Part shown: positions 41,188 to 55,558 of the stretch, one piece after another
How the letters are laid out: each line of letters opens with the position of its first letter
Position numbering within the stretch: the stretch's first letter is position 1
Source of the DNA: Bacteroidales bacterium
GTDB lineage: Bacteria; Bacteroidota; Bacteroidia; Bacteroidales; UBA12077
Direction of reading: 5' to 3'
NCBI GenBank assembly: GCA_963665525.1
Contig: OY762280.1
Span: 3,948,084 to 4,012,083, forward strand
DNA: 64,000 nucleotides
Position numbers and translations under genes: made by a program
Notes under the pieces: generated by a model
Databases searched by the model: none
Told to the model about the DNA's origin: nothing
The model's input: the letters and a program-made list of their open reading frames with translations, nothing else

Positions 41188-41260
41188 AATTTTTAGTTTT
41201 AGATATGTAGTCTACTTAAAACGTAGACCACAGAATGGTTAATAATAAGGTAATTTTAAA

Positions 41261-42148
41261 TTATTTTGCTTCGTTGGTTTTGGCTAGAGATACTAAACCT
41301 CCCATAGCTCCAAGGTTCATTGAATCAAGAGCTGAACTAGGAACAATAACCATTGATCCTTTTTCTTTTAAACCTTCGAATAACATATTCATTCCACGAA
41401 GTTGCAATGCAACAGGATTATCTGCATATTGCTCACTTGCTTTGGCAAATTTTTCTGCGATCTCTGTTTCGGCAGTTCCCAGAATAACTCTTGCTCTGCG
41501 TTCTCTTTCTGCTTGTGCTTCTTTACTCATGGCATCAGCTAGGGCTTGTGGAATAACAATATCTTTTATACCAACAGTTTGACAGGTTATTCCCCAAGGA
41601 TTGGTGTTGTGATCAAGAATTTTTTGCAAATCATCGGCTATTTTATCTCTCTCCTGAAGTAAATCGGCTAACTCGTGTTTCCCAATAATATCGCGCAATC
41701 CGGTTTGTGCAATATAAGATATGGCTTTAACATATTCTTGTACTTCAAGAGCAGCTTTTTCTACATCCCAAACAGTCCAGTAAACTACAGCATCAACATT
41801 TACAGGAACTGTGTCTTTGGTTAAGGTTTGATCGGCCATAAAATCGGTTACCCGAACACGTTGGTCAATGTAGGTGTCAATTTTATCTACAATAGGAATA
41901 ATCATGAAAGGACCTGGACCTTTTAAGCCCTGATATTTACCAAGACGCAATACAACAGCTTTTTCCCATTGATCTGCAATGTGAATGGAGCATGCAATGA
42001 ACAAAGAAAGTAGGATTGAGGGAACCAAAATAGAAATATTAATAATCTCTAAAAAATATAATCCAAACGATACAGTCAATAAAATAATAAGTACTGTAAT
42101 AGAAATTGGATTAAGAAAGCTTTTAGTAATCGTTTGTTTCGTTTTCAT
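41261..42148 (-). CDS. SPFH/Band 7 (stomatin-like, slipin) membrane protein
   Basis: It has N-terminal TM helices, an SPFH core (VRVTDF...VPVNVDAVVYW...IKDIVIP) and an Ala/Glu-rich coiled coil (EAQAERERRARV). Confidence 0.9.
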   Translation of the reverse strand: MKTKQTITKSFLNPISITVLIILLTVSFGLYFLEIINISILVPSILLSLFIACSIHIADQWEKAVVLRLGKYQGLKGPGPFMIIPIVDKIDTYIDQRVRVTDFMADQTLTKDTVPVNVDAVVYWTVWDVEKAALEVQEYVKAISYIAQTGLRDIIGKHELADLLQERDKIADDLQKILDHNTNPWGITCQTVGIKDIVIPQALADAMSKEAQAERERRARVILGTAETEIAEKFAKASEQYADNPVALQLRGMNMLFEGLKEKGSMVIVPSSALDSMNLGAMGGLVSLAKTNEAK

Positions 42149-42195
42149 AATTTTTAGATTTAACTTGCTTGTAAAATAATTACGGGCATTGTCTC

Positions 42196-42564
42196 TTATT
42201 TTTGTTTTTGTAGTTCGTTTATAATATCGTTTACTGAGAATCCATAGCTATACGCTATTGTACAAAACTCATGACATATTTCTTTTAGTTTTTCATTTCT
42301 TTCTTTTTCGGAAATTTGAATTTCTATTGTAGAAATAAAAGTGCCTGTGCCTTGTTGGGTTTCAAGAATATTTTGTATTTCAAGCTCTTTATAAGCTTTT
42401 GCGACTGTATTTAAGTTAACTTTTAAATCAACAGCCAAAGCTCGTACTGTAGGTAGTTGCTCTCCAATTTTTAAATTACCACTGGCAATACCAAATTTTA
42501 TCTGATCGATAATTTGTCGGTAAAATGGAGTTCCTGCTTTTGGGTCTAATTTAAATTGAATCAT
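42196..42564 (-). CDS. GntR-family transcriptional regulator, YtrA subfamily
   Basis: 122 aa. It has the GntR wHTH (PFYRQIIDQIKFGIASGNLKIGEQLPTVRALAVDLKVNLNTVAKAY) and a short C-terminal helix pair. Confidence 0.9.
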   Translation of the reverse strand: MIQFKLDPKAGTPFYRQIIDQIKFGIASGNLKIGEQLPTVRALAVDLKVNLNTVAKAYKELEIQNILETQQGTGTFISTIEIQISEKERNEKLKEICHEFCTIAYSYGFSVNDIINELQKQK

Positions 42565-42752
42565 TGTTCTATTATATTATTGTCATATAAGAATAGTACA
42601 AACATACAAGATAAATTAATTCATGTCAAGTTTTTTTGAATGTTTTTTTGATTAAGATTCTGAGGATACTATAGATAGAGGTGTTTAAAAAAAGAAATCA
42701 CCACTAAATTATTGTGATGATCTCCTTTTAACTAAATAAACAACTAAATTAA

Positions 42753-43802
42753 TTATGTGGTTTTAATTAATTTATCGAAATACATTGCAAACGAGCGATA
42801 TAAAAAGTGAGTCCATTTACCAAACGGAACTATTATTACAGCCCACTGTACAAGAACTATTAAATGGAATAAATACATCCAAAGGTTGTTTTCGATAATA
42901 TTTAAATCGATAAAAACTCTTACAATAAATGCTGTTAATCCCATTAAGAATAGCCAGATTACAAAAAACCAGTCCGATGGTTGTGAGAACTTGTTTACTT
43001 CTCTGTTTTTTCTAATTCTTCCAATCATAAATATGAATGTAATTGCAAAAATTGCAATACTTTCAATATATCCTAAAAGAATAATAAACATGTTTTCTGT
43101 CCCAAACCAATCTAGAACAACGGTAGTAAAAAGTAAAGCCAGATAACCAAATACAAGTATCATATGCATTAGCCAACGTCTATAACTATCGTCGCAACCC
43201 AAAGTTCGCTTTTGAGTAAACATATGAATAAACAGTTCTTTGGCTGTTAACAGATAGGTTTTAAATTTTACTTTTTTGCCTGGTTTTAATATTACAAACC
43301 ACCACATTCGTGCTAAGTTAGGAATAAGTATAACTGCAAAAACAGCAGCAATAGCAAGCATTTCGAATGTATGTCCAAAGTGCATAATTGCTTCGGTATT
43401 AAAATTTAGTTTAAAACTAAACCAAATAACTGCGATAGCAGTAGCAATAAATGCAAACAGACTAAAAAATAATGATTTGTATAATAGACCCGATAAACCG
43501 GTCCAGTCGTATTTTGCAGTAAGCCATCTTCTTAACGACATCATTAATTCGCCAGGATTAGCTTCTCGCGGACAAGTACTTGCACAATCGCCGCAATAAT
43601 AACATAACCAAGGATCTAATGATGATGTAATTTTCTGATCTAACCCAAGAACACTGGCACGCACCATTTTTCGTGGGAAAGAATTGTCTTTATCAGATAA
43701 GCTGCATACAGCAGTACAATTCCCGCAATTATAACACGCATTAAAATCGTTGTTACCGTATTTGAAGATTTCTTTTGCAAATTTAGGATTTATTCTTGCC
43801 AT
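42753..43802 (-). CDS. QmoC-like subunit: HdrC-type 2x[4Fe-4S] domain fused to a 6-TM cytochrome-b-like (HdrE/NarI-type) membrane domain
   Basis: It has two ferredoxin-type motifs (CYNCGNCTAVC and CYYCGDCASTCP). About six hydrophobic helices follow, carrying candidate haem-ligand His residues (HFGH, MHMIL, FHLIV, WTHF). Confidence 0.8.
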   Translation of the reverse strand: MARINPKFAKEIFKYGNNDFNACYNCGNCTAVCSLSDKDNSFPRKMVRASVLGLDQKITSSLDPWLCYYCGDCASTCPREANPGELMMSLRRWLTAKYDWTGLSGLLYKSLFFSLFAFIATAIAVIWFSFKLNFNTEAIMHFGHTFEMLAIAAVFAVILIPNLARMWWFVILKPGKKVKFKTYLLTAKELFIHMFTQKRTLGCDDSYRRWLMHMILVFGYLALLFTTVVLDWFGTENMFIILLGYIESIAIFAITFIFMIGRIRKNREVNKFSQPSDWFFVIWLFLMGLTAFIVRVFIDLNIIENNLWMYLFHLIVLVQWAVIIVPFGKWTHFLYRSFAMYFDKLIKTT

Positions 43803-43807
43803 ATGAT

Positions 43808-44086
43808 TTACTTTTTCAATTTGTAAAAATAGTATTCATCCATATCATCAATTTCCCCGGTTTCAATACTTCCGTATTTTTGCAAAGTCATTAAATGATA
43901 GGTGACTATATCAAAAGGAATACCTGTTTCTTTAGCAATTTGAGGAATGGTTTTATCTTCCGCTTCGAGAGCTTTCAGGATTTGTTTTTTTATCCTGTTA
44001 AACTCTTTCATTTTTTCTTTTACTTCATCGGAAACTTTCCTCGTTTTCTTAATAATGTCTATTGTTTTTTCCATAATATCTTGCAT
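43808..44086 (-). CDS. Small winged-helix DNA-binding-like protein (Cys-free)
   Basis: 92 aa. The pattern RIKKQILKALEAEDKTIPQIAKETGIPFDIVTYHLMTLQKYGSIE looks like an ArsR/MarR-type wHTH. The gene lies 2 nt and 5 nt from its neighbours inside the operon. Confidence 0.55.
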   Translation of the reverse strand: MQDIMEKTIDIIKKTRKVSDEVKEKMKEFNRIKKQILKALEAEDKTIPQIAKETGIPFDIVTYHLMTLQKYGSIETGEIDDMDEYYFYKLKK

Positions 44087-44088
44087 TA

Positions 44089-46023
44089 TTAATCAATTAA
44101 AGCTTCAATCATACTTTCCATTTCTTTGTCTGTGTATCCAATTAAGTCAATTGCATTTTCAGGACAAACAGGTAAGCACATTCCGCATCCTTTACATAAT
44201 GATTTATTTACAACAGCAACCTCTTTACCATCGGTTGTAGTTTTTGAAATAGCATCGTACGGACAAGCGTTAGAGCAGTTATCACACCACGAACATTTAT
44301 CGTTATGAATAACGGCCATGGTTGGTTCAAGTTCAATTTCGCCTAAGCTAACCAAAGAGTTTGCTTTAGATGCAGCCGATAGTGCCGATTTTACCGATTC
44401 GGTAATATTTAAAGGAGCCTGACAAGCACCTGAAATTAATACTCCATCGATAACGGTTTCTACAGGACGTAGCTTAGGATGTATTTCGTTAAAGAATTTA
44501 TCTCTACCAACAGGAACTTTAAGTAAGTTAACAATGCCTTCGTATTCTCTAGGAACCATTCCGGTTACTAAAACAACTAAATCAGCATTAATTTCTACTT
44601 CTTCGTTGTCGGTTAAAATATCTTTAATTTTAACTATAGTTTCGTTGCCAACATATTGAACTTCCGGAGGAGAATCTTCGAAAGATTGTAAGAAAATATC
44701 GCCAGCTTCGGATGCTTGATGATAAAGTTTCTCTTGCTTTCCGTAAGTTCTTATTCCACGGTTAAAATGGAAGTTATTAATGTTTGGATATTTTTCTTTA
44801 ACAAGAATCGCGGTATGAATTGCTGATGTACAGCAATAACGCGAGCAATATTTATTAGGCCCATCAACCTGACGACTACCAACACAATAGATGTAAGCTA
44901 TATTTTTAACTTCTTGATGATTGTATAATAATTTATCATTATTAAGTTCAATTAATCGCTTAAATTGCTGAAGTGTAATTACATTACTTACCTCATGGTA
45001 TCCAAATTCGCCTTTTTCAGGTTCATAAGGGTTAAATCCGGTACAAAGCTGAATAGCTCCAACAGTAATTTCTGTTTCGGTTTCAGTTTGTTCAAGATCA
45101 ATATCATCGCATATGGCCACACATTCGCCACATTTAGTACAAGCTTTATAATCAATTGCAGGAATTTCAGGAAACTCACTACAGTAGTTTTTAAAAATAG
45201 CTTTACGTTTTGTGATGTTAAAATTGAAATCGTCATCAACCTCAACAGGGCATACTTCAATAGCTTTTTGGAACTTCTCTTTATCAAGTTTGCAATCGGG
45301 TTTAATATAGCGTGGAATAGTTTTTAATTTAAGACTATATTCTCCAACACTACCTTTTTTCTCAGCAATTTCGGTTCCGGTATAAAGCGTAATTTTTGGA
45401 TGAGAAATAATTTCATTGTATAAACGAGATACTACTTCTTGTCCGGTTTCATTAGTTGTAAACAATACGTTCCATTGAGAGGTACGACCACCAACAAAAT
45501 GTTCGCGCTCAATTAAATGAACAGTCGTTCCCATTTCGGCAAGTTCCAAAGCAGCACGCATTCCTGCAATACCAGCACCAACAACAGCAATGGCATTTTG
45601 CGATGGAATTTTAACAGGAGTAAGTTCTTTTGAATATTTTACTCTTTCAATTCCTCCCTGAACTAATTTTATGGCCTTTTCGGTTGCCATTGGGGCATTA
45701 TCGGAATGTGCCCAGGAGCCTTGTTCACGGATATTAACCTGAACGTAATTGTAAGGATTTAACCCGGCGCGTATCGCTACATTTCTAAATGTAAACAAGT
45801 GTAATTTTGGAGAACAAGATGCAACAACTATAGCATCCAAACTTTGTTCTTTGATATCGTTAGCAATTTCTTGTTGTGTGGAATCGGCACAGGCAAACAT
45901 GGTTGTTTTTGCCAGTGTAACTCCTTCAACTTTTGCGGCAGCTTCTTTTACTTTTTCAACATCTACATAGTCGGAAATATTCGAGCCGCACATGCATACA
46001 TATACTCCAATTTTATTTTTCAT
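44089..46023 (-). CDS. HdrA-like FAD/FeS oxidoreductase (QmoB-like but lacking the MvhD domain)
   Basis: It has an N-terminal CMCG motif, the dinucleotide fold VVGAGIAGMRAALELAE, the HdrA signature CVGSRQ...YCSRYCC and a C-terminal 2x4Fe-4S (CSWCDNCSNACP, CKGCGMCLPVCP). It overlaps the upstream gene by 11 nt. Confidence 0.85.
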   Translation of the reverse strand: MKNKIGVYVCMCGSNISDYVDVEKVKEAAAKVEGVTLAKTTMFACADSTQQEIANDIKEQSLDAIVVASCSPKLHLFTFRNVAIRAGLNPYNYVQVNIREQGSWAHSDNAPMATEKAIKLVQGGIERVKYSKELTPVKIPSQNAIAVVGAGIAGMRAALELAEMGTTVHLIEREHFVGGRTSQWNVLFTTNETGQEVVSRLYNEIISHPKITLYTGTEIAEKKGSVGEYSLKLKTIPRYIKPDCKLDKEKFQKAIEVCPVEVDDDFNFNITKRKAIFKNYCSEFPEIPAIDYKACTKCGECVAICDDIDLEQTETETEITVGAIQLCTGFNPYEPEKGEFGYHEVSNVITLQQFKRLIELNNDKLLYNHQEVKNIAYIYCVGSRQVDGPNKYCSRYCCTSAIHTAILVKEKYPNINNFHFNRGIRTYGKQEKLYHQASEAGDIFLQSFEDSPPEVQYVGNETIVKIKDILTDNEEVEINADLVVLVTGMVPREYEGIVNLLKVPVGRDKFFNEIHPKLRPVETVIDGVLISGACQAPLNITESVKSALSAASKANSLVSLGEIELEPTMAVIHNDKCSWCDNCSNACPYDAISKTTTDGKEVAVVNKSLCKGCGMCLPVCPENAIDLIGYTDKEMESMIEALID

Positions 46024-47311
46024 GAGTACCTCCTCTCAAGTAGCCTGCAGTTTCTGAGGAAGCTGCTCCGGCCGATAATATTGAATCTGGGATATCCATT
46101 GGCCCTGATGCTGTTCCTGCTACATAAACCCCATCAATATTGGTTTGTGCAGGGTTGGCAAGTAAATCTCTTTGTTGAACATAATTAAATTGATCTAACT
46201 CAAGATTGTTGTTAAACATTGATTTAACACCATCGTTGGCTAAAATACCAGTCGATAAAACAACCATATCGTGATTCGCTTCTTTAACAGTTCCACTTTC
46301 AATATCCTCGTATCTTAACTTAAGGTCTCCATCTTCAATTTCTTCTATTTTACCAATCTTACCTTTAATAAAGCTTACACCCATATCTTTTGCTTGTTGG
46401 TAAAACTCGTTAAATCCTTTACCAAACGACCGTATGTGTAAGTAATAAATTGTGATATCGGCCATAGGTAATGCTCCCATTAAAAGCTGGGCTTGCTTAA
46501 TTGAATACATACAGCAAACTTGTGAACATATTGGATTTCCAACAGTTTCGTCGCGCGAACCAGCACATAATACATAAGCAATATTGTCGGGCATTTTACC
46601 ATCTTTAGGTCTTAGAACAGTATTGTATGGACGTGTTGGAACTAGCTGACGTTCCATTTGCATGGCTGTAAGTACATTTTTGAATTTTCCAAAACCGTAT
46701 CTTGGAATATTTTCTGCATCGAATAGTTTATATCCGGTTGCAATAATTACCGATTTTGCCTGAATAGCTATGTCTTGCTTTTCTTGAGTAAAATCGATAC
46801 AGTTTGCAGGGCAGGCTTTTTCACATGCTCCGCATAAGCTACAGTTTTCAATATCTATTGCAGCAACCCTGGGATTGGCAATACTAAAAGGTACATAAAC
46901 AGCTTTACGGCCAACTAAATCCCATTGATATTGGTCTTTTACCACTACAGGGCATTTGTCTTCGCAAATCTGGCATCCTGTGCATGATTCTTCATCAACA
47001 TAGCGTGGATACTTGGTTAAGGTAGCGCGAAAATCAAATTCAGACTTTTTATCAATATTACTTACCTGGCTGTTGGTATAAATAGTTATATTTGGATGTC
47101 TTGCTGTTTCGGATACTTTAGGTGTTGTAATACATGCAGAACAATCTAATGTTGGAAAAACCTTACTTAAGTGGATCATTTTACCACCCAGGGATAAGTC
47201 TTTTTCAACAATAATGACTTTATAACCTTGGTTTGCAAGGTTAAGAGCTGCTTCTTCTCCAGAAATTCCTCCACCAATAACAAGAACATCGTATTCTTCT
47301 GATTTTGTCAT
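46013..47311 (-). CDS. HdrA-like FAD/FeS oxidoreductase (QmoA-like)
   Basis: It has VLVIGGGISGEEAAL, FPTLDCSACITTPK and CAGSRDE...CSQVCCMY, matching HdrA signatures, plus two inserted ferredoxin motifs (CTGCQICEDKCP, CSLCGACEKACP). Confidence 0.9.
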   Translation of the reverse strand: MTKSEEYDVLVIGGGISGEEAALNLANQGYKVIIVEKDLSLGGKMIHLSKVFPTLDCSACITTPKVSETARHPNITIYTNSQVSNIDKKSEFDFRATLTKYPRYVDEESCTGCQICEDKCPVVVKDQYQWDLVGRKAVYVPFSIANPRVAAIDIENCSLCGACEKACPANCIDFTQEKQDIAIQAKSVIIATGYKLFDAENIPRYGFGKFKNVLTAMQMERQLVPTRPYNTVLRPKDGKMPDNIAYVLCAGSRDETVGNPICSQVCCMYSIKQAQLLMGALPMADITIYYLHIRSFGKGFNEFYQQAKDMGVSFIKGKIGKIEEIEDGDLKLRYEDIESGTVKEANHDMVVLSTGILANDGVKSMFNNNLELDQFNYVQQRDLLANPAQTNIDGVYVAGTASGPMDIPDSILSAGAASSETAGYLRGGTHEK

Positions 47312-47327
47312 ATTGAGTAATTTTTAG

Positions 47328-47729
47328 TTAATTCTCCGAAGCTTTAGATAATTGCTCATGAAATGTTTTCATGTGCTTTACAAAAGCTTCTGCACAAACG
47401 GAACATATAGCAGCCATTTTTAATCGGGCAGGATCCATATTTTTTTCTTTCATGATAGCATGAGTCGCTTGCACTATTTTTGATGTTTTTTCAGAACAAG
47501 TATCGCTATAAGGACAGTCGGTTCCGTCAGCAGCAATAAAAACACCATCGAATCCTTTTTCGAAAGCATGTAAAATCCATTGTGGTTTTACCGAGCTAGA
47601 ACAAGGAACATTAACAGTATAAACTGTTGCAGGATAATGTTTTTTAAGGAGCCCCGCCATATCGATCGCGGGGTCCGAAATTTTCTCAGTTGAAAAAACC
47701 AGAATCTTTGGATTCTTTAATTTTTCCAT
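47328..47729 (-). CDS. MvhD/FlpD-like iron-sulfur protein (hydrogenase delta-subunit family)
   Basis: 133 aa. The layout ILVFST...VPCSS...FDGVFIAADGTDCPYSDTC...AICSVCAEAF is typical of MvhD-type [2Fe-2S] proteins that partner HdrA. Confidence 0.8.
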   Translation of the reverse strand: MEKLKNPKILVFSTEKISDPAIDMAGLLKKHYPATVYTVNVPCSSSVKPQWILHAFEKGFDGVFIAADGTDCPYSDTCSEKTSKIVQATHAIMKEKNMDPARLKMAAICSVCAEAFVKHMKTFHEQLSKASEN

Positions 47730-47732
47730 CGT

Positions 47733-47984
47733 TTATCCTTTCTTCATGTAAATTTTGAAGTATCCTGACTCTTCTACTGTACCTAAGTAGTCGTGGCCTT
47801 TTTTAGCAGCCCACTTAGGGATATCTTTTTTAGTTCCTTCGTCGGCAGAAAGAACTTCCATAATTTGACCTGAAGTTATTTCGCCAATTGCTTTTTTAGC
47901 AGCTAAAAGTGGTCCTGGACATGCTGTTCCTCTTGCGTCGACTGATTTGTCAACATTTAATGCTTGTAATTCTTCTGTTGTCAT
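47733..47984 (-). CDS. TusA-family sulfurtransferase (second copy)
   Basis: 83 aa with the CPxP active-site motif in VDARGTACPGPLLAAKKAI. Confidence 0.9.
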   Translation of the reverse strand: MTTEELQALNVDKSVDARGTACPGPLLAAKKAIGEITSGQIMEVLSADEGTKKDIPKWAAKKGHDYLGTVEESGYFKIYMKKG

Positions 47985-48004
47985 AACTATATCTCCTTTA
48001 AATT

Positions 48005-48418
48005 TTAAATAAATAAATTAACGTCTGTTTCTTGAATAGACTCAATGTATTCTCCAATTCCACAAATGTCATCAACCACATCAATGAAATCTTCGATTTT
48101 TTCTCCACCGGCAATTTTACCTGCTAAACTGCAGATATGGATTTTTACTTCGGTCATTTCTTTTGCCATTTCGAAAAACTCAATCCACGATGGTGTTGAT
48201 AAGCTTTCGAGAGCAGCTTTAAATTCGTCGGGTGTTTGAACATCTTCGCTCATATTTGATATATCGGCAGCTTTACTTTTTAAGAATGCATGACCTGCAT
48301 TTACCAGAACAAATAAATCTACTTCCATATCGTCGGCAGCAGCACCACTTAAAATAACGCCAACACTTGTTAATTTATCGATGCTTGATGTGCTCAAACC
48401 TATTGTCATTTTTGCCAT
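48005..48418 (-). CDS. DsrE/DsrF-like sulfur-relay family protein
   Basis: 137 aa with an alpha/beta pattern (VGVILSGAAADD...DLFVLVNAGHAF...KIHICSLAG) typical of the DsrE_2/COG2210-type relatives of DsrE. The candidate active Cys is in HICS. Confidence 0.75.
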   Translation of the reverse strand: MAKMTIGLSTSSIDKLTSVGVILSGAAADDMEVDLFVLVNAGHAFLKSKAADISNMSEDVQTPDEFKAALESLSTPSWIEFFEMAKEMTEVKIHICSLAGKIAGGEKIEDFIDVVDDICGIGEYIESIQETDVNLFI

Positions 48419-48443
48419 AATAATTCAATTTTTGTATTAAAGA

Positions 48444-48947
48444 TTAACCTCCACAGCCTCCGCTCGATTCTTCTTTTTTAGGTTCTGCAACAGGTGCAGC
48501 TTCACCCATTCCTTGTTCAACTAATTCAGGATAAGTTGCTTCCCAATCGAACCAGCTAAAATCAAGCAAATAACAATCGGAATATTTTAATAATTCCAGA
48601 GATTGAACAGCTAATGCACCGCTACCCATTTCGTTACCAATTACTAAAGTTTTTATTCTACGATTTGATATTTTACCCGAGAATTCCAGTAATCCGCGAG
48701 GAATATGAATTGATCCCGGAATGTGGCCAAGTATAAAATCATAATCTTCGCGACAATCAACAATTTGAATCTCAGTGTGATTATCAATTAGATTTTTTAA
48801 TTCTTCCATGCCCAATGTTTTGATTTCTGCTTTTGCAGCAGCTATCATATCATCTACATTTTCATAAACTGTATTATCTTTCTGAACACAGCTTGATAAT
48901 AAGATGATTGACAATAAGGTCGGAAAAATGAATTTTATAAATCTCAT
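48444..48947 (-). CDS. Rhodanese-domain lipoprotein without active-site Cys, ending in GGCGG
   Basis: It has the lipobox LLSSC and a rhodanese core (IVDCREDYDFILGHIPGSIHIPRG). The active-site loop reads LVIGNEMGSGALA, with no Cys. A Pro/Glu/Ala linker follows, then the C-terminal SSGGCGG and a stop. Confidence 0.8.
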   Translation of the reverse strand: MRFIKFIFPTLLSIILLSSCVQKDNTVYENVDDMIAAAKAEIKTLGMEELKNLIDNHTEIQIVDCREDYDFILGHIPGSIHIPRGLLEFSGKISNRRIKTLVIGNEMGSGALAVQSLELLKYSDCYLLDFSWFDWEATYPELVEQGMGEAAPVAEPKKEESSGGCGG

Positions 48948-48958
48948 AATTACTTATT

Positions 48959-49765
48959 TTATAATTTCCATTCGTTGTATGCTCCGTCGTAAACTTTTAC
49001 GTTAGGATACTCAAGAACTGAAGTTAATGCAAGATATACTATCCCGGCTCTTACGCTGGTTGCACAGTAAAGAATAATTTCTTTGTCTTTGGTAATACCT
49101 GCACCATTAAATAATGCTTGTAAATCTTCTTTTGATTTAAGTTTACCGCCATCGGCTAAAACATTTTTATACTCTAAGTGCTTAGCACCTTCGATGTATC
49201 CTTCTGCCCATTCTGTATCGTCTCTAACATCAACAAGAATAGCCGACTTTAATTTAGATTTTACATAAGCTTTATCGGCAAAGATTTTAGCATTTACTTT
49301 AGGAGTAAATGTTACAGCAGCTTTTTTTGTTGCAGCATTTGTAACTGGACCTCTTGCGGTTCTCCATGCTTGCATATGACCATCCATAACTTTCACATCG
49401 TTGAATCCTAAATATTTTAGAATCCAGTATAAACGGCCTGCACCTTTATTTGAACCTGTATCGTAAATGATGATTTTTTTAGCTGGATCAATTCCTTTTT
49501 CTCCTAAGATAGTAGCTAGTTCAGCTGGAGATTTAAGAATTCCTTTAGGATCAGTTGTGCTTGCTAAGTCGTTAATGTTCACATTAACCGCATTTCTGAT
49601 ATGCACTTTTGCATAATCGGCTGGAGTTCTAGTAGATACAATAACAGCATCTTTGCTATTCACTAATTTCTTAGCTTCGGCAGCAGAAATTAAATCCTGA
49701 GCAAAAGAAAGATTTGCGAATATAGCTACTAATAAAAGACTAAATAATATGTTTTTTAATTTCAT
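48959..49765 (-). CDS. Secreted two-domain rhodanese (thiosulfate sulfurtransferase type)
   Basis: It has a signal peptide (LSFA|QD). The N-domain loop IYDTGSNKGAGR is inactive (Asp in place of Cys). The C-domain loop LYCATSVRAG is active. Confidence 0.9.
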   Translation of the reverse strand: MKLKNILFSLLLVAIFANLSFAQDLISAAEAKKLVNSKDAVIVSTRTPADYAKVHIRNAVNVNINDLASTTDPKGILKSPAELATILGEKGIDPAKKIIIYDTGSNKGAGRLYWILKYLGFNDVKVMDGHMQAWRTARGPVTNAATKKAAVTFTPKVNAKIFADKAYVKSKLKSAILVDVRDDTEWAEGYIEGAKHLEYKNVLADGGKLKSKEDLQALFNGAGITKDKEIILYCATSVRAGIVYLALTSVLEYPNVKVYDGAYNEWKL

Positions 49766-49776
49766 AATTTCGTTTA

Positions 49777-50823
49777 TTAAAATTTAACCTGAACTTGCAA
49801 TACAACCTGATCGTTAGGAATTTCTAAAGCTTGTTCTGCTTTGTATCTGTAATTTAATTGAACACGTGTCCAATCGTTTAAGAAATAGTTTAATCCAAAT
49901 GTCATGATTGTTTCAGAGTTGTCGTCGATATCTACGTCAGAATCAAAGCATTCAAATTTGAATACTGGTTGTAAATTCCATCTTGTAGTATACATTGCCT
50001 GTGCAAAATAACCGCTACGAGTTACACCACCAGTATGATATTCGATTGGTGTACCATCGCAACCACCACCAGTTGTGTAATCGCCAGTATCATCGGCCCA
50101 AAGATATTCTGCCTGAAATAAGAAATTTCCGGTTTTTATTTGTACTTCGCCACCTAAACGAGTTTTCTCGTTATCTTCTTCGGCACCTGTTTTACCATAG
50201 GCAAAACTACCGCCTACCTGAAGAAAATCAACAGGAGCAAATGTTAATCTTCCTTTTATACTTTTAGCTTTGTTTTCATCTTCGAAACCTTTTTCATAAT
50301 CATTCATTAAAGCTAAATAGTAGTTGATTTTAGAGTCGAGAAGACTACCAAAAACCATAGCTCCCATATCGCGTTGCGGACCTGCTAGTTCGTCAACAGC
50401 TTTTGAACGATAGATAGTATGAAGAGACTGACAAGGTGTGTTTTGCTCTAAACTTAATGGCGATTTAAACTGACCAAAGCTTATTTTGGCAAAATCGTAT
50501 CGTGAATAAGTCACAAATGCATCTAGTAACCATGGCGATCCTGATTTGAATCGAGAGAAATCAACCATGAAGAAATAACTTACATCGTAAGGAATATTTC
50601 CAACTGCAGCTATTCTTGCACGGTTAAAGGTAAAGCTGTTAGCATCTTTACCATCGGTAGTTTGATAATATTCCCACTGTGGCTGAATGTAACCTTTAAT
50701 GCTTACTCCTTCGTCGGAAGAAGCTTCCATACATCCTTGTGCAGAAACAAGCTGTGTAGATGTTAATACCACAAGAATTGAGAGGCTAAATATTGATAAT
50801 ATCTTTTTAATCATTTTTTTCAT
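49777..50823 (-). CDS. Outer-membrane porin, phosphate-selective porin O/P-like family
   Basis: It has a signal peptide (LVSA|QG), an N-terminal FTFNRARIAAVGNI block like the porin O/P family, a beta-strand periodicity and the C-terminal ...VLQVQVKF. Confidence 0.75.
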   Translation of the reverse strand: MKKMIKKILSIFSLSILVVLTSTQLVSAQGCMEASSDEGVSIKGYIQPQWEYYQTTDGKDANSFTFNRARIAAVGNIPYDVSYFFMVDFSRFKSGSPWLLDAFVTYSRYDFAKISFGQFKSPLSLEQNTPCQSLHTIYRSKAVDELAGPQRDMGAMVFGSLLDSKINYYLALMNDYEKGFEDENKAKSIKGRLTFAPVDFLQVGGSFAYGKTGAEEDNEKTRLGGEVQIKTGNFLFQAEYLWADDTGDYTTGGGCDGTPIEYHTGGVTRSGYFAQAMYTTRWNLQPVFKFECFDSDVDIDDNSETIMTFGLNYFLNDWTRVQLNYRYKAEQALEIPNDQVVLQVQVKF

Positions 50824-50832
50824 ATTTTTAAT

Positions 50833-50866
50833 TAAAAAATAAGCTAAGTAGCTTTTGCTACCCAGC
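50833..50866 (-). terminator. Intra-operon terminator/attenuator-like hairpin (minus strand)
   Basis: The minus-strand RNA reads gcugggtagc-aaaa-gcuacuuagc, a 10-bp stem with two G-U pairs, followed by uuauuuuuu. On the plus strand the same positions would be A-C mismatches. Confidence 0.45.
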
Positions 50867-50877
50867 TTAAATATTTT

Positions 50878-51843
50878 TTATTCTAATGGTAAGTCAGTAA
50901 TTGCTGTAGCATCCCACTTGTGTGAAGTAAGATTATCATAAATCATACTATTAACACCATTTTTTAAACTGTGTGGAGTATAACCTAATACATATAAATA
51001 AGCTGTTACCATTGAAGAAGTTTGTCCTGTCCAGCAATATGTTACCACATCTTTTGATGGATCAAGATACATATATTCTCCACCAGCTAATGTTAAAGGC
51101 TTAATTCGGTATGCACCAGAAATGTGTCCGTAAGTTGTAACATCAGCCGCATCCCAGAAATTATTTACATAGTAACTTCCTGGACTAGCTAATACGTCAG
51201 ACCCAGCAACACCTTGGAAACCAGCTGTTAATAATGCAGTAACTCTTGCGGCAAGAATTTCAGCACCTGTTCCTGTAGTTGTAATATCAGGATCGTCGAA
51301 TTGAGTAGTTTGAGTACTTACAGCACCAGGAGCAGCAATCCAGTTAGGGCTATCAATTGTATTACATGAACCACTCCATGAGTCAAGGCTGGTATGCCAT
51401 CCACTCATTCCCCATTTTAATACTTTGGCATCAGTATAACCGCTTAAACGTAAAGCAACGGTTCCATGTCCTGCTCCTTGTCCGCTATAACAAACAACAA
51501 TAATTGGTTTTCCGGCAGCATTACCTGCTTCGGTAACAATATTACCTAAAGTTGAATTTACTGCTCCAGGAATATGACTTGTGTTATATGCGTCAGAAGA
51601 TCTGATATCAATTATATAATAAGAGCTTAGGTTATCTTTTATAGCATCAGCAGTAGTGATCCAGTCAGTTAGTATATTATCCAAATCCAAATCGTTAGCT
51701 ACTAAGTACTCTTTTAGAATCTGAAATTCAGTGTCGGTTTGACGGTCTGGAGTTGCATCGTCATCACTGTCGTCTTTACAAGATGTTAAAACAAATGCAG
51801 GAATAATTAAAATTAATAATGCGTACTTTAAAAACTTTTTCAT
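50878..51843 (-). CDS. Lipoprotein with two rhodanese-like domains and an acidic post-Cys tract
   Basis: The lipobox VLTSC is followed by KDDSDDDATPD. Two rhodanese modules carry the loops VVCYSGQGAGHG and TYCWTGQTSS. I chose the ATG at 51843, because the longer ORF overlaps the upstream gene. Confidence 0.8.
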   Translation of the reverse strand: MKKFLKYALLILIIPAFVLTSCKDDSDDDATPDRQTDTEFQILKEYLVANDLDLDNILTDWITTADAIKDNLSSYYIIDIRSSDAYNTSHIPGAVNSTLGNIVTEAGNAAGKPIIVVCYSGQGAGHGTVALRLSGYTDAKVLKWGMSGWHTSLDSWSGSCNTIDSPNWIAAPGAVSTQTTQFDDPDITTTGTGAEILAARVTALLTAGFQGVAGSDVLASPGSYYVNNFWDAADVTTYGHISGAYRIKPLTLAGGEYMYLDPSKDVVTYCWTGQTSSMVTAYLYVLGYTPHSLKNGVNSMIYDNLTSHKWDATAITDLPLE

Positions 51844-51878
51844 AGTATTATAAATTTTGGTTAGTATTTTCTTATTTA

Positions 51879-52355
51879 TTATCCTCCACAACCACCTGAC
51901 TCAGGTTGCTTAGTAATAGCAGGGGCTCCGCCTGAAAATTTCATCCAACCACCTTTAAGGTTAGATATATTTTCGAATCCCAATTTTTGAAGTGATTTTG
52001 CAGCAAGAGCACCACGGCCACCTACTTTGCAATACACAATAATTTTATCAGTTTTTAGAGGGGTGTACATGAATTGCTCTTCCCAGAAATATTCATCAAG
52101 AATAAGGAATTCTAATTCACCACGAGGAATAGAGAATGATCCCGGAATATTTCCTGCTTCGTATTCGGAAGGTTGTCTTACATCTATTAAAAGGAATTCT
52201 TCTCCATTATCAATCATCGATTTTAAAGTATCGACAGATATTTCATTTATTTCGGTTGCAACAACACTAGCTAATTCTTTACCATCTTCATATATGGCAG
52301 TACAAGAAGAAAACAAGAAGATGAGCAGTGCTGCGATTGATATATTAAATTTCAT
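51879..52355 (-). CDS. Rhodanese lipoprotein with intact active-site Cys, ending in GGCGG
   Basis: It has the lipobox LFSSC, the core LIDVRQPSEYEAGNIPGSFSIPRG and the active loop IVYCKVGGRGALA. The C-terminus reads ...APAITKQPESGGCGG followed by TAA. Confidence 0.85.
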   Translation of the reverse strand: MKFNISIAALLIFLFSSCTAIYEDGKELASVVATEINEISVDTLKSMIDNGEEFLLIDVRQPSEYEAGNIPGSFSIPRGELEFLILDEYFWEEQFMYTPLKTDKIIVYCKVGGRGALAAKSLQKLGFENISNLKGGWMKFSGGAPAITKQPESGGCGG

Positions 52356-52381
52356 AATTTTGTTTTTAATAGTTTCAATAA

Positions 52382-53596
52382 TTAAAAAGCACTGAATTTT
52401 CCTGTGCGTTCATTCCACTTAACAAATACATACCATATTAGTATTACTACAAGAACTAGAATAAAAGCTCCAGCATAGCCTAAATAGTCAGGCAAATAAT
52501 TTTTGAACTTCATTGTATGAGGGAGTGCATCAACGATTGCAGGAACAATATATTTTTTAGAAATAGGGGATACAAGTAAGAATCCTAATGCAGCCATCCA
52601 TAATTTAACCTGCCCTTCGCCTACACGCCAAAGTGTTCCAACGGCACATCCTCCGGCAACAGTCATTCCTAATCCAAAAATAAATCCTCCTAAAAGACCA
52701 CGTAACCAGAAATGTCCAAAAACCCAGGTCATTTCACGAGCACGAATAGTAGCATCGCCTGCACCAATACCAAAATATTTAATGGCAGTGAAACCTATTA
52801 ATGTAATAACTAAACCGGCCATTACTCCAACAGAACCATCGCTTTCGCCTGTCATAAAAGGATCGCGGAATGCTTTAACGATACAAAAGCGTGATCGTTG
52901 GCAAATGAGTCCCATTAATAATCCTGAAATTATAAACCAGGCTAATACGCCATTGGTTCCGGCAACTCTATATGCAAGAACAAAAGTTCCGATAGAAACG
53001 ATCCATCCTAACCAGATTTGCCATTTTCCTGTTTTTTCTGATGCAGCAAGGAAAGTAAAACTTTTACCTGTGCTAAAAGAAGGGAACTTTTCCATTTCCC
53101 AAAGCAAGTATTTAAGAGCAATTATAGTACCAGCAAAAAGTCCTATAGTAAAAATAATTGCTCCACCTGATAATGCTGGGACACCCGAGAAAAATGAACC
53201 AATTGTACAACCTAATCCCAGAGTTGCTCCAATAGCCATTAATGCACCTCCAATAAATCCTTTTATTAATTCTCCTTTAGGAGGTATTCGTAAGGCAAAT
53301 TCTTTTGAGAAGAGAGCTCCGGCAAATGATCCTAAAACCAGTATCAGGCAAAGCATACCATAAAGACTGGTACTTGTAGGTGCAGCATTTTCAAAAGCAG
53401 AAATACCCAGGAGCTTAAAAATATTCTCACCCCAGTTATTAATACCACCACTAGCACCCCAAGGACTTTTTACGGTAAATAGTAAAATGTTTAGTAGTCC
53501 CAGAGTAACACCACCAACCCATACTGGCCAGTGTTTGGCGAAAAAAATATTAAATAATTCGCGAAGTATTCCTGGCTCTTTTTGTTGATCAGCCAT
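52382..53596 (-). CDS. YeeE/YedE-family sulfur-compound (thiosulfate-type) transporter
   Basis: 404 aa and polytopic. It has the repeated Cys-containing motifs LGLGCTIGSFFSG, GLICQRSRFC and VAGGCAVGTLWRVGEG that are characteristic of YeeE/YedE. Confidence 0.9.
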   Translation of the reverse strand: MADQQKEPGILRELFNIFFAKHWPVWVGGVTLGLLNILLFTVKSPWGASGGINNWGENIFKLLGISAFENAAPTSTSLYGMLCLILVLGSFAGALFSKEFALRIPPKGELIKGFIGGALMAIGATLGLGCTIGSFFSGVPALSGGAIIFTIGLFAGTIIALKYLLWEMEKFPSFSTGKSFTFLAASEKTGKWQIWLGWIVSIGTFVLAYRVAGTNGVLAWFIISGLLMGLICQRSRFCIVKAFRDPFMTGESDGSVGVMAGLVITLIGFTAIKYFGIGAGDATIRAREMTWVFGHFWLRGLLGGFIFGLGMTVAGGCAVGTLWRVGEGQVKLWMAALGFLLVSPISKKYIVPAIVDALPHTMKFKNYLPDYLGYAGAFILVLVVILIWYVFVKWNERTGKFSAF

Positions 53597-53605
53597 TTTT
53601 ACCTC

Positions 53606-53836
53606 CTACTTTTTTTGTATTAGAAACCTGAAAACACCATTTTCAACTTCACCTTCTTCAAGTAAAGCGTTTCCTGTTTTTTCACACCATTTTGGTAGGT
53701 CTGATTTTGTTCCAGGATCGGTTCCTAACATTTCAAGCACATCTCCAGAACCTAATCCTTTAATTGCTTTTGCCAGTTTCATCATTGGCATAGGACATGA
53801 AAGCCCTTTTACGTCTAATGTTTCTTTAATTTCCAT
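53606..53836 (-). CDS. TusA-family sulfurtransferase (first copy, paired with YeeE)
   Basis: 76 aa with the motif LDVKGLSCPMPMMKLAKAI (CPxP). It lies 9 nt upstream of the YeeE gene. Confidence 0.9.
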   Translation of the reverse strand: MEIKETLDVKGLSCPMPMMKLAKAIKGLGSGDVLEMLGTDPGTKSDLPKWCEKTGNALLEEGEVENGVFRFLIQKK

Positions 53837-53954
53837 ATCAATAAAATTTAGTGATTATTTCGTTGGAGTAAAGGTTGTTAATTAATTAACACAAGTAAAG
53901 AAAACCTTTGTGATGTTCATCCAGTATAAATCATGAGATTGGGTAGCAAGAAAA

Positions 53955-53968
53955 CTGATTTAGATCAA
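53955..53968. promoter_or_regulatory. Candidate Crp/FNR-type operator (cTGAT-N4-ATCAA)
   Basis: CTGATTTAGATCAA matches 9 of 10 positions of TTGAT-N4-ATCAA. It lies in the divergent region between the sulfur operon (ATG at 53836) and the Crp/Fnr gene (ATG at 54026). Confidence 0.4.
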
Positions 53969-54025
53969 CTTTTTTGCTGATTTATTGTTATATTTATATC
54001 ATTAAAGCCTATTAATGTTGTACTT

Positions 54026-54721
54026 ATGGAAAAGATATCTGCTTTAAATAGTTGTACAGTAAGCAATGCAAAATGTATTTGTTTTGATTTATTGACGCCA
54101 GAACAAAGAGAATTGATTGAAAAAAATTCGATTGATGTTCGATATAAGAAAGGTGAAGTAATTTGTAAACATGGTACTTTTGCTCCACATGTTATTCTAC
54201 TTAAAGAGGGCTTGGCAAAAATTTATTTAGAGGGTTTAAATGATTCCTTAATCTTAAAAATAATTACTTCGGGTAATTTAATTGGGTTAACTTCTGTTAT
54301 GGAAGATAATAATGTGTTTCATTATTCAGCATCGGCATATGTTGATTCTTCTGCCAGCTTAATAGATATCAATATCTTTAGAAAAATTCTTAAAGAAAAT
54401 GCCGAATTTGCAAATTCGGTAATAAATATTTTATGTGAAAATTCCTTACAAACTTTCGGAAGATTTTTCTGCTTAACACATAAACAACTATATGGTAGAA
54501 TGGCAGATATTATCTTATGTTTATCTGAAAGAATCTTTAAAGAAAAAAGTTTTGTTTTAAATCTTACAAGAAAAGAGCTGGCTGAATTAACAGGGATGTC
54601 AACGGAAAGCGTTATACGAATGCTTAAGAAATTTAAAGATGACGGAATAATAGAACTGCAAGGAAAGGAAGTCGTTATTTCAAATTATGATTTATTGCGT
54701 AAGATTAGCGAATATGGATAA
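54026..54721 (+). CDS. Crp/Fnr-family transcriptional regulator
   Basis: It has a cNMP-binding-like beta-barrel and a C-terminal HTH (TRKELAELTGMSTESVIRMLKKF). The N-terminus carries the Cys residues CTVSNAKCIC. Confidence 0.9.
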   Translation: MEKISALNSCTVSNAKCICFDLLTPEQRELIEKNSIDVRYKKGEVICKHGTFAPHVILLKEGLAKIYLEGLNDSLILKIITSGNLIGLTSVMEDNNVFHYSASAYVDSSASLIDINIFRKILKENAEFANSVINILCENSLQTFGRFFCLTHKQLYGRMADIILCLSERIFKEKSFVLNLTRKELAELTGMSTESVIRMLKKFKDDGIIELQGKEVVISNYDLLRKISEYG

Positions 54722-54724
54722 TAT

Positions 54725-55417
54725 CTATCCATTTTTACTTATCTCTTTTAGTAGTTCCAGGTTTAAGATCTTTATTTTTTTACCCTTTAGCTGAATAATT
54801 TTTTCATCATTAAATTCTGATAATATTCGGGCAACACTTTCAATGGCCATTCCGGAAAGCTCGGCTAAATCTTTTCGATTAACATATGAAAATACATCAA
54901 TTGATTTAAACTCTTCTCTGTTTAAGTATAATAATACATTAGCTAATTTTCCATTTAATTGTTTTAAACCAAGGTTTAAACATTTGGTTAACATAATATT
55001 GTAGTTTTTACAATACCAACTTGCTAATTCGCGAGAAAAATCGCAGCTCATAGAGATTAAGTCTTTAATGGCATTTTGATTAATTGCACATACTTTTGTT
55101 TCAGTAATTGCAGCTGCTGAGAAATAATAGGAATCGTCGCCGTATAAAGAGGTTAATCCAATAAAATCATGCGGTTTTAGTAGTTTGATGATAATATTTT
55201 TACCGGGACCTTCGATGTATACTTTTACTAATCCATTAAGAACATATAAAATATCAGATACACGTGTGCCTTCTTTAATTATTGTTTCTCCTTTGTTATA
55301 TGTAACATGGGTTTTGACTAGATTATTAAACTCATCAATTATTTCAATATCCTGGATAAAACATTCCGATTTTCTGTTGCAATCTGTACAGTTAGTTTTT
55401 ATTAAATATCTGTCCAT
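54725..55417 (-). CDS. Crp/Fnr-family transcriptional regulator (paralog, convergent)
   Basis: It has the same architecture, with the HTH NRKDLAELSGMAIESVARILSEF and the N-terminal Cys cluster CTDCNRKSEC. Confidence 0.9.
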   Translation of the reverse strand: MDRYLIKTNCTDCNRKSECFIQDIEIIDEFNNLVKTHVTYNKGETIIKEGTRVSDILYVLNGLVKVYIEGPGKNIIIKLLKPHDFIGLTSLYGDDSYYFSAAAITETKVCAINQNAIKDLISMSCDFSRELASWYCKNYNIMLTKCLNLGLKQLNGKLANVLLYLNREEFKSIDVFSYVNRKDLAELSGMAIESVARILSEFNDEKIIQLKGKKIKILNLELLKEISKNG

Positions 55418-55494
55418 TTTAACAGTGGGGTTTAAATAATAAATTGATAGTTGCAGTATATAAAGATATAAAATATTATGAAAAAATATGGAAG

Positions 55495-55529
55495 GGAATA
55501 AAAAATGGAAATCTATCTGATTTCCATTT
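55495..55529 (-). terminator. Rho-independent terminator after the 160-aa hypothetical gene
   Basis: The perfect 10-bp stem aaatggaaat / atttccattt has a 7-nt loop and is followed on the minus strand by a T-run. Confidence 0.6.
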
Positions 55530-55558
55530 AATATAAAGATTAAAAACAGGGAATTCTA

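Follow-up and report, generated by a model that had tools for sequence, protein, structure and literature searches.

The window analysed here, a stretch of 64,000 nucleotides (nt) from the complete 4.6-Mb genome of a Bacteroidales bacterium, carries at positions 42753-53836 a cluster of 14 open reading frames (ORFs), all on the minus strand, in which sulfur-transfer proteins of the TusA, YeeE, rhodanese and DsrE families lie together with a putative redox complex related to HdrA and Qmo. A first-pass annotation had described fourteen same-strand genes here; the ORF positions bear this out, every coordinate being as it had given it, and Pfam and NCBIfam profile searches of the 14 proteins agree with the family that it named for each. 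In the order of transcription the cluster reads:

53606-53836, minus strand: TusA1, a TusA protein with the motif CPMP (PF01206, 86.7 bits), first gene of the inner-membrane import module
52382-53596, minus strand: YeeE/YedE-family membrane transporter of 404 amino acids (aa) (PF04143, Sulf_transp, 178.7 bits)
51879-52355, minus strand: single-domain rhodanese lipoprotein with active-site Cys C109 and a C-terminal GGCGG (PF00581)
50878-51891, minus strand: double-rhodanese lipoprotein, predicted to be surface-exposed (two PF00581 stretches)
50840-50869, minus strand: terminator-like hairpin with a 13-bp stem and a T run, within the 54-nt gap preceding the porin gene
49777-50823, minus strand: OprP/ExtI-like porin, predicted to have 16 strands (PF07396, Porin_O_P; NCBIfam ExtI model, 46.6 bits)
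48959-49765, minus strand: secreted two-domain rhodanese with a signal peptide of the signal peptidase I type (PF00581 twice, 134.8 bits)
48444-48947, minus strand: rhodanese-fold lipoprotein without the active-site Cys, with a GGCGG tail (PF00581, 51.7 bits)
48005-48418, minus strand: DsrE-like protein, first gene of the core (PF13686, DrsE_2, 34.1 bits)
47733-47984, minus strand: TusA2, a TusA protein with the motif CPGP, core gene (PF01206, 79.9 bits)
47328-47729, minus strand: MvhD/FlpD-like [2Fe-2S] protein of 133 aa, core gene (PF02662, 104.5 bits)
46013-47311, minus strand: HdrA432, an HdrA-like flavoprotein of 432 aa (E = 4.6e-109 to chain 9sfi_A)
44089-46023, minus strand: HdrA644, a full-length HdrA homologue of 644 aa (E = 6.3e-123 to 5odc_A over residues 4-638)
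43808-44086, minus strand: small Cys-free winged-helix protein (wHTH), with a weak ArsR-type profile match
42753-43802, minus strand: QmoC-like protein (NF038018, 159.5 bits; cut-off 300)

Recomputed from the ORF positions, the intergenic gaps are 9, 26, 54, 11, 11, 25, 20, 3, 16, 2 and 5 nt, and HdrA432 and HdrA644 share the one 11-nt overlap. At the junction between the first tailed rhodanese and the double-rhodanese lipoprotein a mechanically assigned TTG start gives a 13-nt overlap; homologues of the latter start at an ATG 16 codons downstream of that TTG, leaving a 35-nt gap, and the ATG at 51843 is likely to be the true start. The GGCGG tails first noticed on two rhodanese lipoproteins are both present, but the one that had been called Cys-less is without the active-site Cys only; its lipobox Cys, its tail Cys and two others are there. 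No known terminal sulfur enzyme is encoded in the window, as had been claimed. The arrangement of the 14 genes is far beyond chance; related clusters are found in dozens of genomes.

Using HdrA432, 80 related loci were retrieved, mainly from Bacteroidales metagenome-assembled genomes (MAGs) and also from Krumholzibacteria, Aminicenantes, Clostridia, Thermoplasmata and Acidilobaceae, and the ORFs were clustered in the 55 of them that are at least 12 kb long. The HdrA pair is present in all 55 of these long loci and MvhD in 54, the winged-helix protein (archaea included) and the QmoC-like protein in 49 each, the DsrE-like protein in 48 and TusA in 46; a Crp regulator is found in 36, single-domain or secreted rhodaneses in 22, YeeE in 20, and the lipoprotein double rhodanese and the porin in 13 each. 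The order DsrE-TusA-MvhD-HdrA-HdrA-wHTH-QmoC is fixed, with the seven genes syntenic in about 50 of the long loci, from five phyla. The TusA-YeeE-rhodanese-rhodanese set lies upstream of this core or on the opposite strand, and the outer-membrane trio may separate the tailed rhodaneses from each other, as it does in the window, or may follow QmoC or lie on the opposite strand; the import genes, where present, are usually contiguous with the core. No further family recurs beside the core in more than four of the long loci, and no conserved terminal enzyme is found nearby. A few MAG loci have split HdrA ORFs, and the split sites do not match conserved Cys.

Co-occurrence was surveyed in these loci and in 300 genomes sampled across the order, and the modules proved to be distributed separately. 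A QmoC-like gene at 56% identity or more is present in 40 of the sampled genomes, and a full-length one at 33% or more in about 72. The porin profile gave 43 full-length matches, some 21 in carriers of the core and some 20 in genomes without a detected QmoC-like gene; in the core-less genomes the trio occurs by itself, often adjoining the same kind of Crp regulator. One genome with a variant, TGA-containing porin gene (G093) has the entire 14-gene order. The cluster is thus not the single 14-gene system first supposed -- the core stands alone in most loci, the trio alone in about 20 sampled genomes -- and consists instead of three modules: a seven-gene core (DsrE-like, TusA, MvhD, HdrA432, HdrA644, wHTH, QmoC-like), an inner-membrane set (TusA, YeeE and the two GGCGG-tailed rhodanese lipoproteins), and an outer-membrane trio (double-rhodanese lipoprotein, OprP-like porin, secreted double rhodanese).

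The two HdrA-like proteins of the core are about 50% identical to methanogen HdrA, as against 30-33% to the QmoA and QmoB encoded elsewhere in the same genome, and the HdrA2 profile gives them 468 and 567 bits as against 356 and 423 for that QmoA and QmoB. HdrA644 aligns from end to end with the methanogen protein, and its N-terminal cluster, FAD motif, CX12CX3CC motif and both ferredoxin domains, inserted and C-terminal, are intact; it has no CxxC motif and no fused MvhD domain, ends after the C-terminal ferredoxin domain, and is about 30% identical to the QmoB of its own genome. HdrA432, 33% identical to QmoA, corresponds to the HdrA core (residues ~146-562 of methanogen HdrA), with the FAD motif, a CxxC, the inserted 2x[4Fe-4S] domain and CX12CX3CC. 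Its C57xxC60 was considered as a new catalytic disulfide and rejected, the same motif being present at the aligned position of methanogen HdrA and so ancestral. The MvhD-like protein has five conserved Cys. The QmoC-like protein, 29% identical to the QmoC of its own genome, has eight invariant Cys, invariant His residues at 213, 313 and 332 and another His at 71%; it had been described as an HdrC-like 2x[4Fe-4S] domain fused to a six-helix membrane domain, of which the HdrC-like domain and six hydrophobic segments are confirmed, while the match to the QmoC model stays below its cut-off (159 against 300 bits). No [NiFe] hydrogenase able to feed MvhD was found in the genome, and an H2-driven function of the Mvh type is therefore rejected for this organism. 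Neither a hydrogenase nor a dehydrogenase is encoded beside MvhD, whose conserved companions are two sulfur carriers only.

The winged-helix protein has no Cys, an acidic wing and a conserved acidic C-terminus (DDMDEYY), and belongs to a family with 452 representatives at E <= 0.001 among 1.84 billion proteins. At least six of these (P0003, full length, and the fragments P0059, P0062, P0075, P0065 and P0070) have it fused to the C-terminal ferredoxin domain of HdrA. Natural fusions of this kind, known from six lineages or more, make it a probable subunit, bound to the corresponding domain of HdrA644, rather than a regulator. A persulfide-sensing ArsR-type repressor was also considered and is unlikely, given the lack of Cys, the acidic wing and the fusions to HdrA and to another iron-sulfur (FeS) protein. 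The latter is seen in P0046, where the winged helix is joined to a NuoG/HydA-type N-terminal 2Fe-2S/4Fe-4S protein, which suggests a module that is added to electron-transfer FeS proteins generally. Complex prediction for HdrA644 with wHTH returned a score of 0.00, which counts neither for nor against binding.

Several loci carry variants of the core. In one from a groundwater metagenome (L093:3238-5985; also L094), the position of HdrA432 is taken by an HdrL-like HdrA of 915 aa with an inserted GltD/NfnB-like NAD(P)-binding module, and HdrA644 is there fused to the winged helix in a protein of 732 aa (L093:6028-8226; also L094). In four others, bacterial and archaeal, a class-I pyridine-nucleotide disulfide oxidoreductase of about 450 aa adjoins the core (L068:7499-8851, L083:378-1745, L085:5962-7350 and L039:14789-16135); these recall the dihydrolipoamide-dehydrogenase-like genes that flank archaeal hdr-dsrE-tusA clusters.

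Such variants are among the points that favour a rather improbable explanation without sulfur as substrate, by which the complex would be a ferredoxin/NAD(P)H:menaquinone bifurcating module, with TusA and the DsrE-like protein serving in cofactor maturation, regulation or protection. Both the NAD(P)-binding insertion in one HdrA variant and the oxidoreductases beside the core in four loci would suit it, as would the lack of an S-S-cleaving subunit and the lack of import genes in most core loci. Against it, the DsrE-like protein and TusA equal the redox subunits in tightness of synteny and in conservation, in archaea no less than in bacteria, and the import genes usually adjoin the core when they are there at all.

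The sulfur carriers have the residues that a function in persulfide transfer would call for. TusA and the DsrE-like protein each keep one invariant Cys, which in the latter is C96, the single invariant Cys in 49 of 49 sequences; the DsrE-like protein passes the PF13686 cut-off (34.1 bits; cut-off 25), and its nearest solved chain is 2qs7. TusA2 is 65-95% identical across the loci and gives 27 bits with the TsuB/YeeD model (cut-off 147.5), with which TusA1 gives no match; in TusA1, C14 and a second Cys, C51, are kept in 15 of 15 sequences. The YeeE protein has seven hydrophobic segments, with C130, C238 and C317 kept in at least 95% of sequences, and falls below the NCBIfam cut-offs for both YedE/FdhT (136 against 350) and TsuA (95 against 400 and 93 against 645). 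In the tailed rhodanese with an active site, the lipobox, active-site and tail Cys are each kept in at least 96% of sequences; in its partner a Gly takes the catalytic-loop position and the tail Cys, C165, is present in all sequences. As the catalytic Cys has been lost, this second protein would be a pure carrier. A tail of GGCGG, GCGG or GGCG ends 43 of 44 single-domain rhodanese homologues, such tails are likewise kept in the genomes with the TGA-form porin, and GGCGG is the motif of the sulfur-carrying arm of SoxY (PMC6067878).

In the outer-membrane trio, the double-rhodanese lipoprotein has two invariant active-site Cys, C134 and C286. Its mature N-terminus reads C-K-D-D-S-D-D-D, and most of the 14 sequences of its family have a Lys or a polar residue ahead of a stretch of acidic ones; this fits the lipoprotein export signal of Bacteroidota (PMC5080379), and on this account it is predicted to face outward at the cell surface. 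The secreted rhodanese has an invariant active Cys, C234, in its C-terminal domain, and gives partial matches to 3-mercaptopyruvate sulfurtransferase and to ExtH (64.6 bits; NF040901 cut-off 200); the porin likewise matches ExtI only in part (46.6 bits; NF040900 cut-off 150), so that both are to be read as resemblance, not membership. An AlphaFold 2 model of the porin (pLDDT 74.9) forms a 16-strand barrel, with the anion-specific OprP and OprO as its best PDB matches (TM 0.71-0.73). Three Cys are conserved: C31 comes directly after the signal peptide (AQG|C), C131 lies in a long loop of the L3 type, and C255 belongs to a loop with the invariant sequence GGGC(G/D), the loops being placed by inference from standard porin topology.

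At the position of C255, the porin genes of five genomes from four families have an in-frame TGA, with the frame conserved beyond it (L106, L107, L108, L109 and L102, from genomes G238, G118, G283, G093 and G263, respectively). SelA exceeds its cut-off in all five of these genomes, and the residue is probably selenocysteine (Sec) there; the genome of the window encodes a porin of the Cys form, and no SelA was found there. As Sec/Cys alternation marks a reactive residue, the C255 position is probably a reactive one. A check for selenocysteine insertion sequence (SECIS) elements gave hairpins 14-20 nt downstream of the TGA whose folding was not better than that of shuffled sequences (z from +0.3 to -2.0), two minus-strand ranges having been cut at the wrong end. 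To our knowledge no selenoprotein porin has been reported before, and no description of a Sec- or Cys-bearing porin paired with a surface rhodanese was found in the literature searched.

That the cluster handles selenium or tellurium in place of sulfur, in selenite uptake and reduction or in selenium acquisition, is a highly improbable alternative, to which the best NCBIfam names nevertheless lend some colour: the transporter is matched to YedE/FdhT, the porin to ExtI and the secreted rhodanese to ExtH, all of them selenium-related, and ExtI has been implicated in selenite reduction (PMC5877670). Those matches are, however, far below their cut-offs, the ext region of Geobacter is now linked to polysulfide respiration (PMC13510729), and bulk sulfur chemistry is the setting to which SoxY-like tails, DsrE and a multi-subunit complex linked to quinone belong. 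SelD is also present in the genome, at C1:1043297-1044223 within a 738-aa frame, and so is apparently fused to another domain; it lies 2.9 Mb from the cluster, and with SelA not found the organism may use selenium for something other than selenocysteine.

The cluster is flanked downstream by genes for a GntR regulator and an SPFH protein and upstream by two regulators of the Crp/FNR family, one of them divergent:

53955-53968, minus strand: Crp/FNR-type palindrome TTGATCTAAATCAG, inside the 189-nt divergent intergenic region
54026-54721, plus strand: divergent Crp/FNR-family regulator (Pfam cNMP_binding and HTH_Crp_2)
54725-55417, minus strand: second Crp/FNR-family regulator, with FNR-like CxxCx5C spacing

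In 29 of the 36 long loci with Crp-family genes, the gene is divergent and directly upstream of the cluster, and 12 of these 29 equivalent intergenic regions contain an exact TGAT-N4-ATCA (shuffles: mean 0.2, maximum 3). The cluster is probably under a dedicated regulator of the Crp/FNR type. In the divergent regulator C10 is invariant, and its N-terminal Cys often form a CxxC, not the full four-Cys set of FNR; its signal could be sulfane sulfur or the redox state and not O2. In four metatranscriptome runs from one marine-sediment study (X7, X9, X10 and X11), contigs 95-100% identical to the region 41000-56500 were found, and the source organism, or a close strain, appears from these near-identical RNA contigs to live in marine sediment. 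The contigs cover most of the genes, with cover absent, for example, at 42034-43067 and beyond 54442, and bridge six junctions: wHTH/HdrA644, DsrE/tailed rhodanese, tailed/secreted rhodanese, secreted rhodanese/porin, lipoprotein/tailed rhodanese and YeeE/TusA1.

The reading we put first, with rather less than even confidence, is that sulfane sulfur enters the cell in the form of protein persulfide, to be reduced by an HdrA-type complex linked to menaquinol and ferredoxin, as an electron sink for fermenters. The surface double-rhodanese lipoprotein would take sulfane sulfur from polysulfide, S0 or thiosulfate and pass it through the OprP-like anion porin, in which the loop Cys (Sec in some relatives) would be reactive, with further Cys at the constriction-type loop and at the N-terminus. 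The secreted double rhodanese and the two lipoproteins with SoxY-like swinging tails would then ferry the sulfur over the periplasm, and YeeE with TusA1, by homology to YeeE/YeeD and SoxT, would move it into the cytoplasm. There the DsrE-like protein and TusA2 would offer protein persulfide to a complex of MvhD, the HdrA-type heterodimer, wHTH and the QmoC-like protein, which would couple the menaquinone pool (through haem b and FeS clusters of the QmoC-like subunit) and probably ferredoxin to the persulfide/sulfide couple. The reaction would most likely be reductive and electron-confurcating, with menaquinol and reduced ferredoxin together yielding H2S.

Persulfide/sulfide is proposed as the mid-potential partner because no hydrogenase or dehydrogenase accompanies MvhD and its conserved companions are sulfur carriers. 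HdrA is the bifurcating subunit of the methanogen Hdr. With menaquinone at about -75 mV and ferredoxin at about -450 to -500 mV, the mean is close to that of S0/HS- (about -270 mV), so that the reduction of two persulfides by menaquinol and reduced ferredoxin, or the reverse, would be roughly isoenergetic. There is a precedent for a quinone-linked bifurcating enzyme in Fix (PMC6085437). The fuller proposal -- that the cluster represents an undescribed and widespread anaerobic pathway of sulfur respiration or electron disposal, in which an envelope-spanning persulfide relay, running from a surface rhodanese through a porin with a catalytic Sec or Cys on a Gly-rich loop to rhodaneses with swinging arms of the SoxY type, feeds a menaquinol + ferredoxin:persulfide oxidoreductase that is confurcating and HdrA-based, lacks a CCG domain and has a novel winged-helix subunit -- is put forward more guardedly still, as a possibility with the balance of likelihood against it.

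The same potentials fit equally well a flow of electrons in the opposite direction, in which sulfide or protein persulfide would be oxidised to sulfane sulfur (S0) at the complex and the electrons bifurcated to menaquinone and ferredoxin, the envelope modules then exporting or handling the resulting sulfane sulfur or importing sulfur for oxidation. HdrA-type enzymes are reversible bifurcators, and Bacteroidales are able to re-oxidise menaquinol on fumarate. In sulfur oxidisers, moreover, the YeeE-like SoxT imports sulfur for oxidation (PMC11582611). We nonetheless consider this direction unlikely: the cluster encodes no enzyme able to oxidise sulfur past the sulfane state, its carriers are either fermenters or MAGs of anoxic origin, control of the FNR type is likely, and a surface capture protein fits uptake better than export. 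Reduction is preferred on account of the anaerobic, fermentative life of the carriers, the FNR-like regulators and the predicted surface exposure of the capture protein.

Several points weigh against reduction of imported persulfide by this complex. None of the 14 proteins of the cluster has a CCG (HdrB/HdrD) domain or another known S-S-cleaving site, and the sole CCG match in the genome is in a 268-aa frame 3.5 Mb away; the site of S-S cleavage is the weakest point of the scheme, and the direction of electron flow is not readable from the sequence. Nothing shows a contact of TusA or DsrE with the complex, and in the variants with an NAD(P)H module the redox partners may differ from those proposed. 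Envelope modules are missing from most of the long core loci, and in half of the genomes with the porin no QmoC-like gene was detected; as the core and the trio each occur without the other, the link between capture and complex is optional. As to the single transcription unit first claimed, the terminator-like hairpin at 50840-50869 divides the cluster at the lipoprotein/porin gap, where it could serve in attenuation or in stabilising the RNA, and the RNA contigs that bridge six junctions are compatible with expression in situ but no proof of a single transcript. The earlier suggestion of a persulfide relay to an HdrA/MvhD/QmoC-like complex stands as regards the sulfur and Hdr families and the predicted locations from surface to cytoplasm; that the complex reduces or oxidises persulfide is pure inference, no S-S-cleaving site being identifiable.

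Elsewhere in the genome, at 0.49-0.50 Mb and 3.5 Mb from the cluster, lies a canonical set aprB-aprA-(four-helix-bundle protein)-qmoA-qmoB-qmoC (C1:494540-501900; L003:9520-16901), with a QmoC that scores 388.9 bits and a QmoB that has the fused MvhD domain. The description of the Hdr/Qmo-like genes as an orphan set therefore holds for the locus, where no Apr, Dsr or CCG neighbour is found in the 55 long loci, but not for the genome as a whole. No Sat-like or other sulfur enzyme is encoded by the genes that flank aprBA-qmoABC. Neither DsrA nor a dissimilatory Sat was found in the genome, which has CysD, and SoxB gave no match over its cut-off anywhere in it; three molybdopterin enzymes are present, all outside the window.

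For this organism and the other carriers of aprBA-qmoABC, the cluster might be the reductive half of a thiosulfate or sulfur disproportionation, the sulfite released being oxidised through AprBA and the canonical QmoABC, with the two Qmo-type complexes exchanging electrons via menaquinone. AprA is present in 16 of the 300 sampled genomes, and 14 of these 16 have the QmoC-like gene, as against about 72 of the 300 overall, though related genomes are not independent samples. That YeeE/YeeD splits thiosulfate to sulfite and sulfide, as cited in PMC13047784, would also suit such a scheme, as does the canonical set itself. With no DsrA and no dissimilatory Sat found in the genome, only CysD, and with most carriers of the core lacking AprA, disproportionation has a slender chance of being correct.

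How S0, polysulfide or thiosulfate is reduced by non-specialist anaerobes that lack Psr/Phs/Sre or Dsr is poorly understood, and so is the passage of insoluble or anionic sulfur through the outer membrane, an open question according to the 2026 MccSep paper (PMC13510729). The locus supplies candidate parts for each step, and its core is present in about one in four of the Bacteroidales genomes sampled, with further occurrences in several other phyla, Archaea among them. To define its function would alter the reading of sulfide production from sediment and gut-type metagenomes. It would also assign the "type II Qmo" proteins a role, show how an HdrA-type enzyme can engage sulfur independently of CCG domains, and extend the known kinds of outer-membrane channel by a porin with a reactive residue.

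The families are each known. What was not found in the papers searched is an HdrA/MvhD/QmoC-like complex that goes with TusA, DsrE and wHTH but has no CCG or Apr, or SoxY-type tails on rhodaneses. The first-pass annotation could name no described pathway of this composition, and none was found in the literature searched, which held no description of the core or of the GGCGG-tailed rhodaneses; most subscription papers lay beyond that search, so that this is not proof of novelty.

Among systems with envelope components, the likeness to the Ext proteins of Geobacter sulfurreducens (ExtH-ExtI-ExtJ-ExtKL) lies in a rhodanese lipoprotein gene that adjoins the gene for a phosphate-porin-like channel, in a locus for polysulfide and S0 respiration. 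There extH-extI-extJ precede extKL (PMC5877670), and ExtKL is MccSep, a polysulfide reductase essential for S0 respiration, with the route of polysulfide across the outer membrane stated to be unknown (PMC13510729). Unlike it, the present cluster has no multihaem cytochromes, its proposed sink is cytoplasmic rather than periplasmic, and its porin has three conserved Cys where ExtI reportedly has one. The C-terminal GGCGG with its carrier Cys is shared with SoxY and stands on both single-domain rhodanese lipoproteins, so that the motif is here borne by a rhodanese fold; SoxZ and SoxB were not found. As in YeeE/YeeD (TsuAB) and SoxT, a YeeE-family transporter gene directly follows a TusA-family gene and the transporter has conserved Cys; the resemblance holds at the level of the Pfam family and not of the TsuA/TsuB equivalogs, whose cut-offs are not reached, and the 404-aa protein with seven hydrophobic segments is accompanied by periplasmic carrier rhodaneses. 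The YTD cluster of sulfur disproportionators likewise brings together a YedE-like protein, TusA and a DsrE-like protein (PMC13047784); the DsrEFH-like partners Chp1 and Chp2 of that cluster are missing here, and the Hdr/Qmo-like complex and the envelope modules are added.

In the sulfur-oxidising sHdr-LbpA system (PMC11094781, PMC6067878), as here, the genes of an Hdr-like complex are coupled to those of TusA, rhodaneses and a protein of the DsrE family. The present cluster differs in having no sHdrB1/B2 and no sHdrC pairs, in an HdrA that keeps its ferredoxin domains and in its QmoC-like membrane anchor; no CCG, lipoyl or GcvH-type match was obtained among the cluster proteins or their immediate flanks. 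The MvhAGD-HdrABC complex of methanogens offers a full-length HdrA with the same domains and clusters as HdrA644, about 50% identity in the core, a separate MvhD and an HdrC-like domain. HdrB, whose non-cubane CCG clusters are the heterodisulfide-cleaving site, has no counterpart here, nor has MvhAG, in keeping with the lack of a [NiFe] hydrogenase; further, the HdrC-like domain is fused to a membrane domain, and the HdrA dimer would consist of one full-length and one trimmed copy.

Canonical ("type I") QmoABC, of sulfate reducers and sulfur oxidisers, also has two HdrA-like flavoproteins, an MvhD-type module, a subunit that joins an HdrC-like 2x[4Fe-4S] domain to a multi-helix domain of the haem b type, and a link to menaquinone, and the QmoC-like protein does combine an HdrC-like domain with a multi-helix, His-bearing domain that putatively binds haem. 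Its score is below the cut-off of the QmoC profile, however, and MvhD is a separate protein here, where in type I it is fused to the C-terminus of QmoB; there is the additional wHTH gene, and no aprBA is adjacent, TusA and DsrE being in that place. The window contains no Apr homologue, and none is among the gene families that recur in the 55 long loci. "Type II" QmoABC has been described as closer to HdrA than to bacterial QmoAB and as occurring with or without Apr and Dsr, with its role left open, by Neukirchen et al. 2023 (PMC10504309). The text consulted has no TusA/DsrE/wHTH context and no envelope modules, but the cluster agrees with it both in its independence of Apr and Dsr and in the closer relationship of its two flavoproteins to HdrA, and its Qmo-like proteins probably belong to the type II group.

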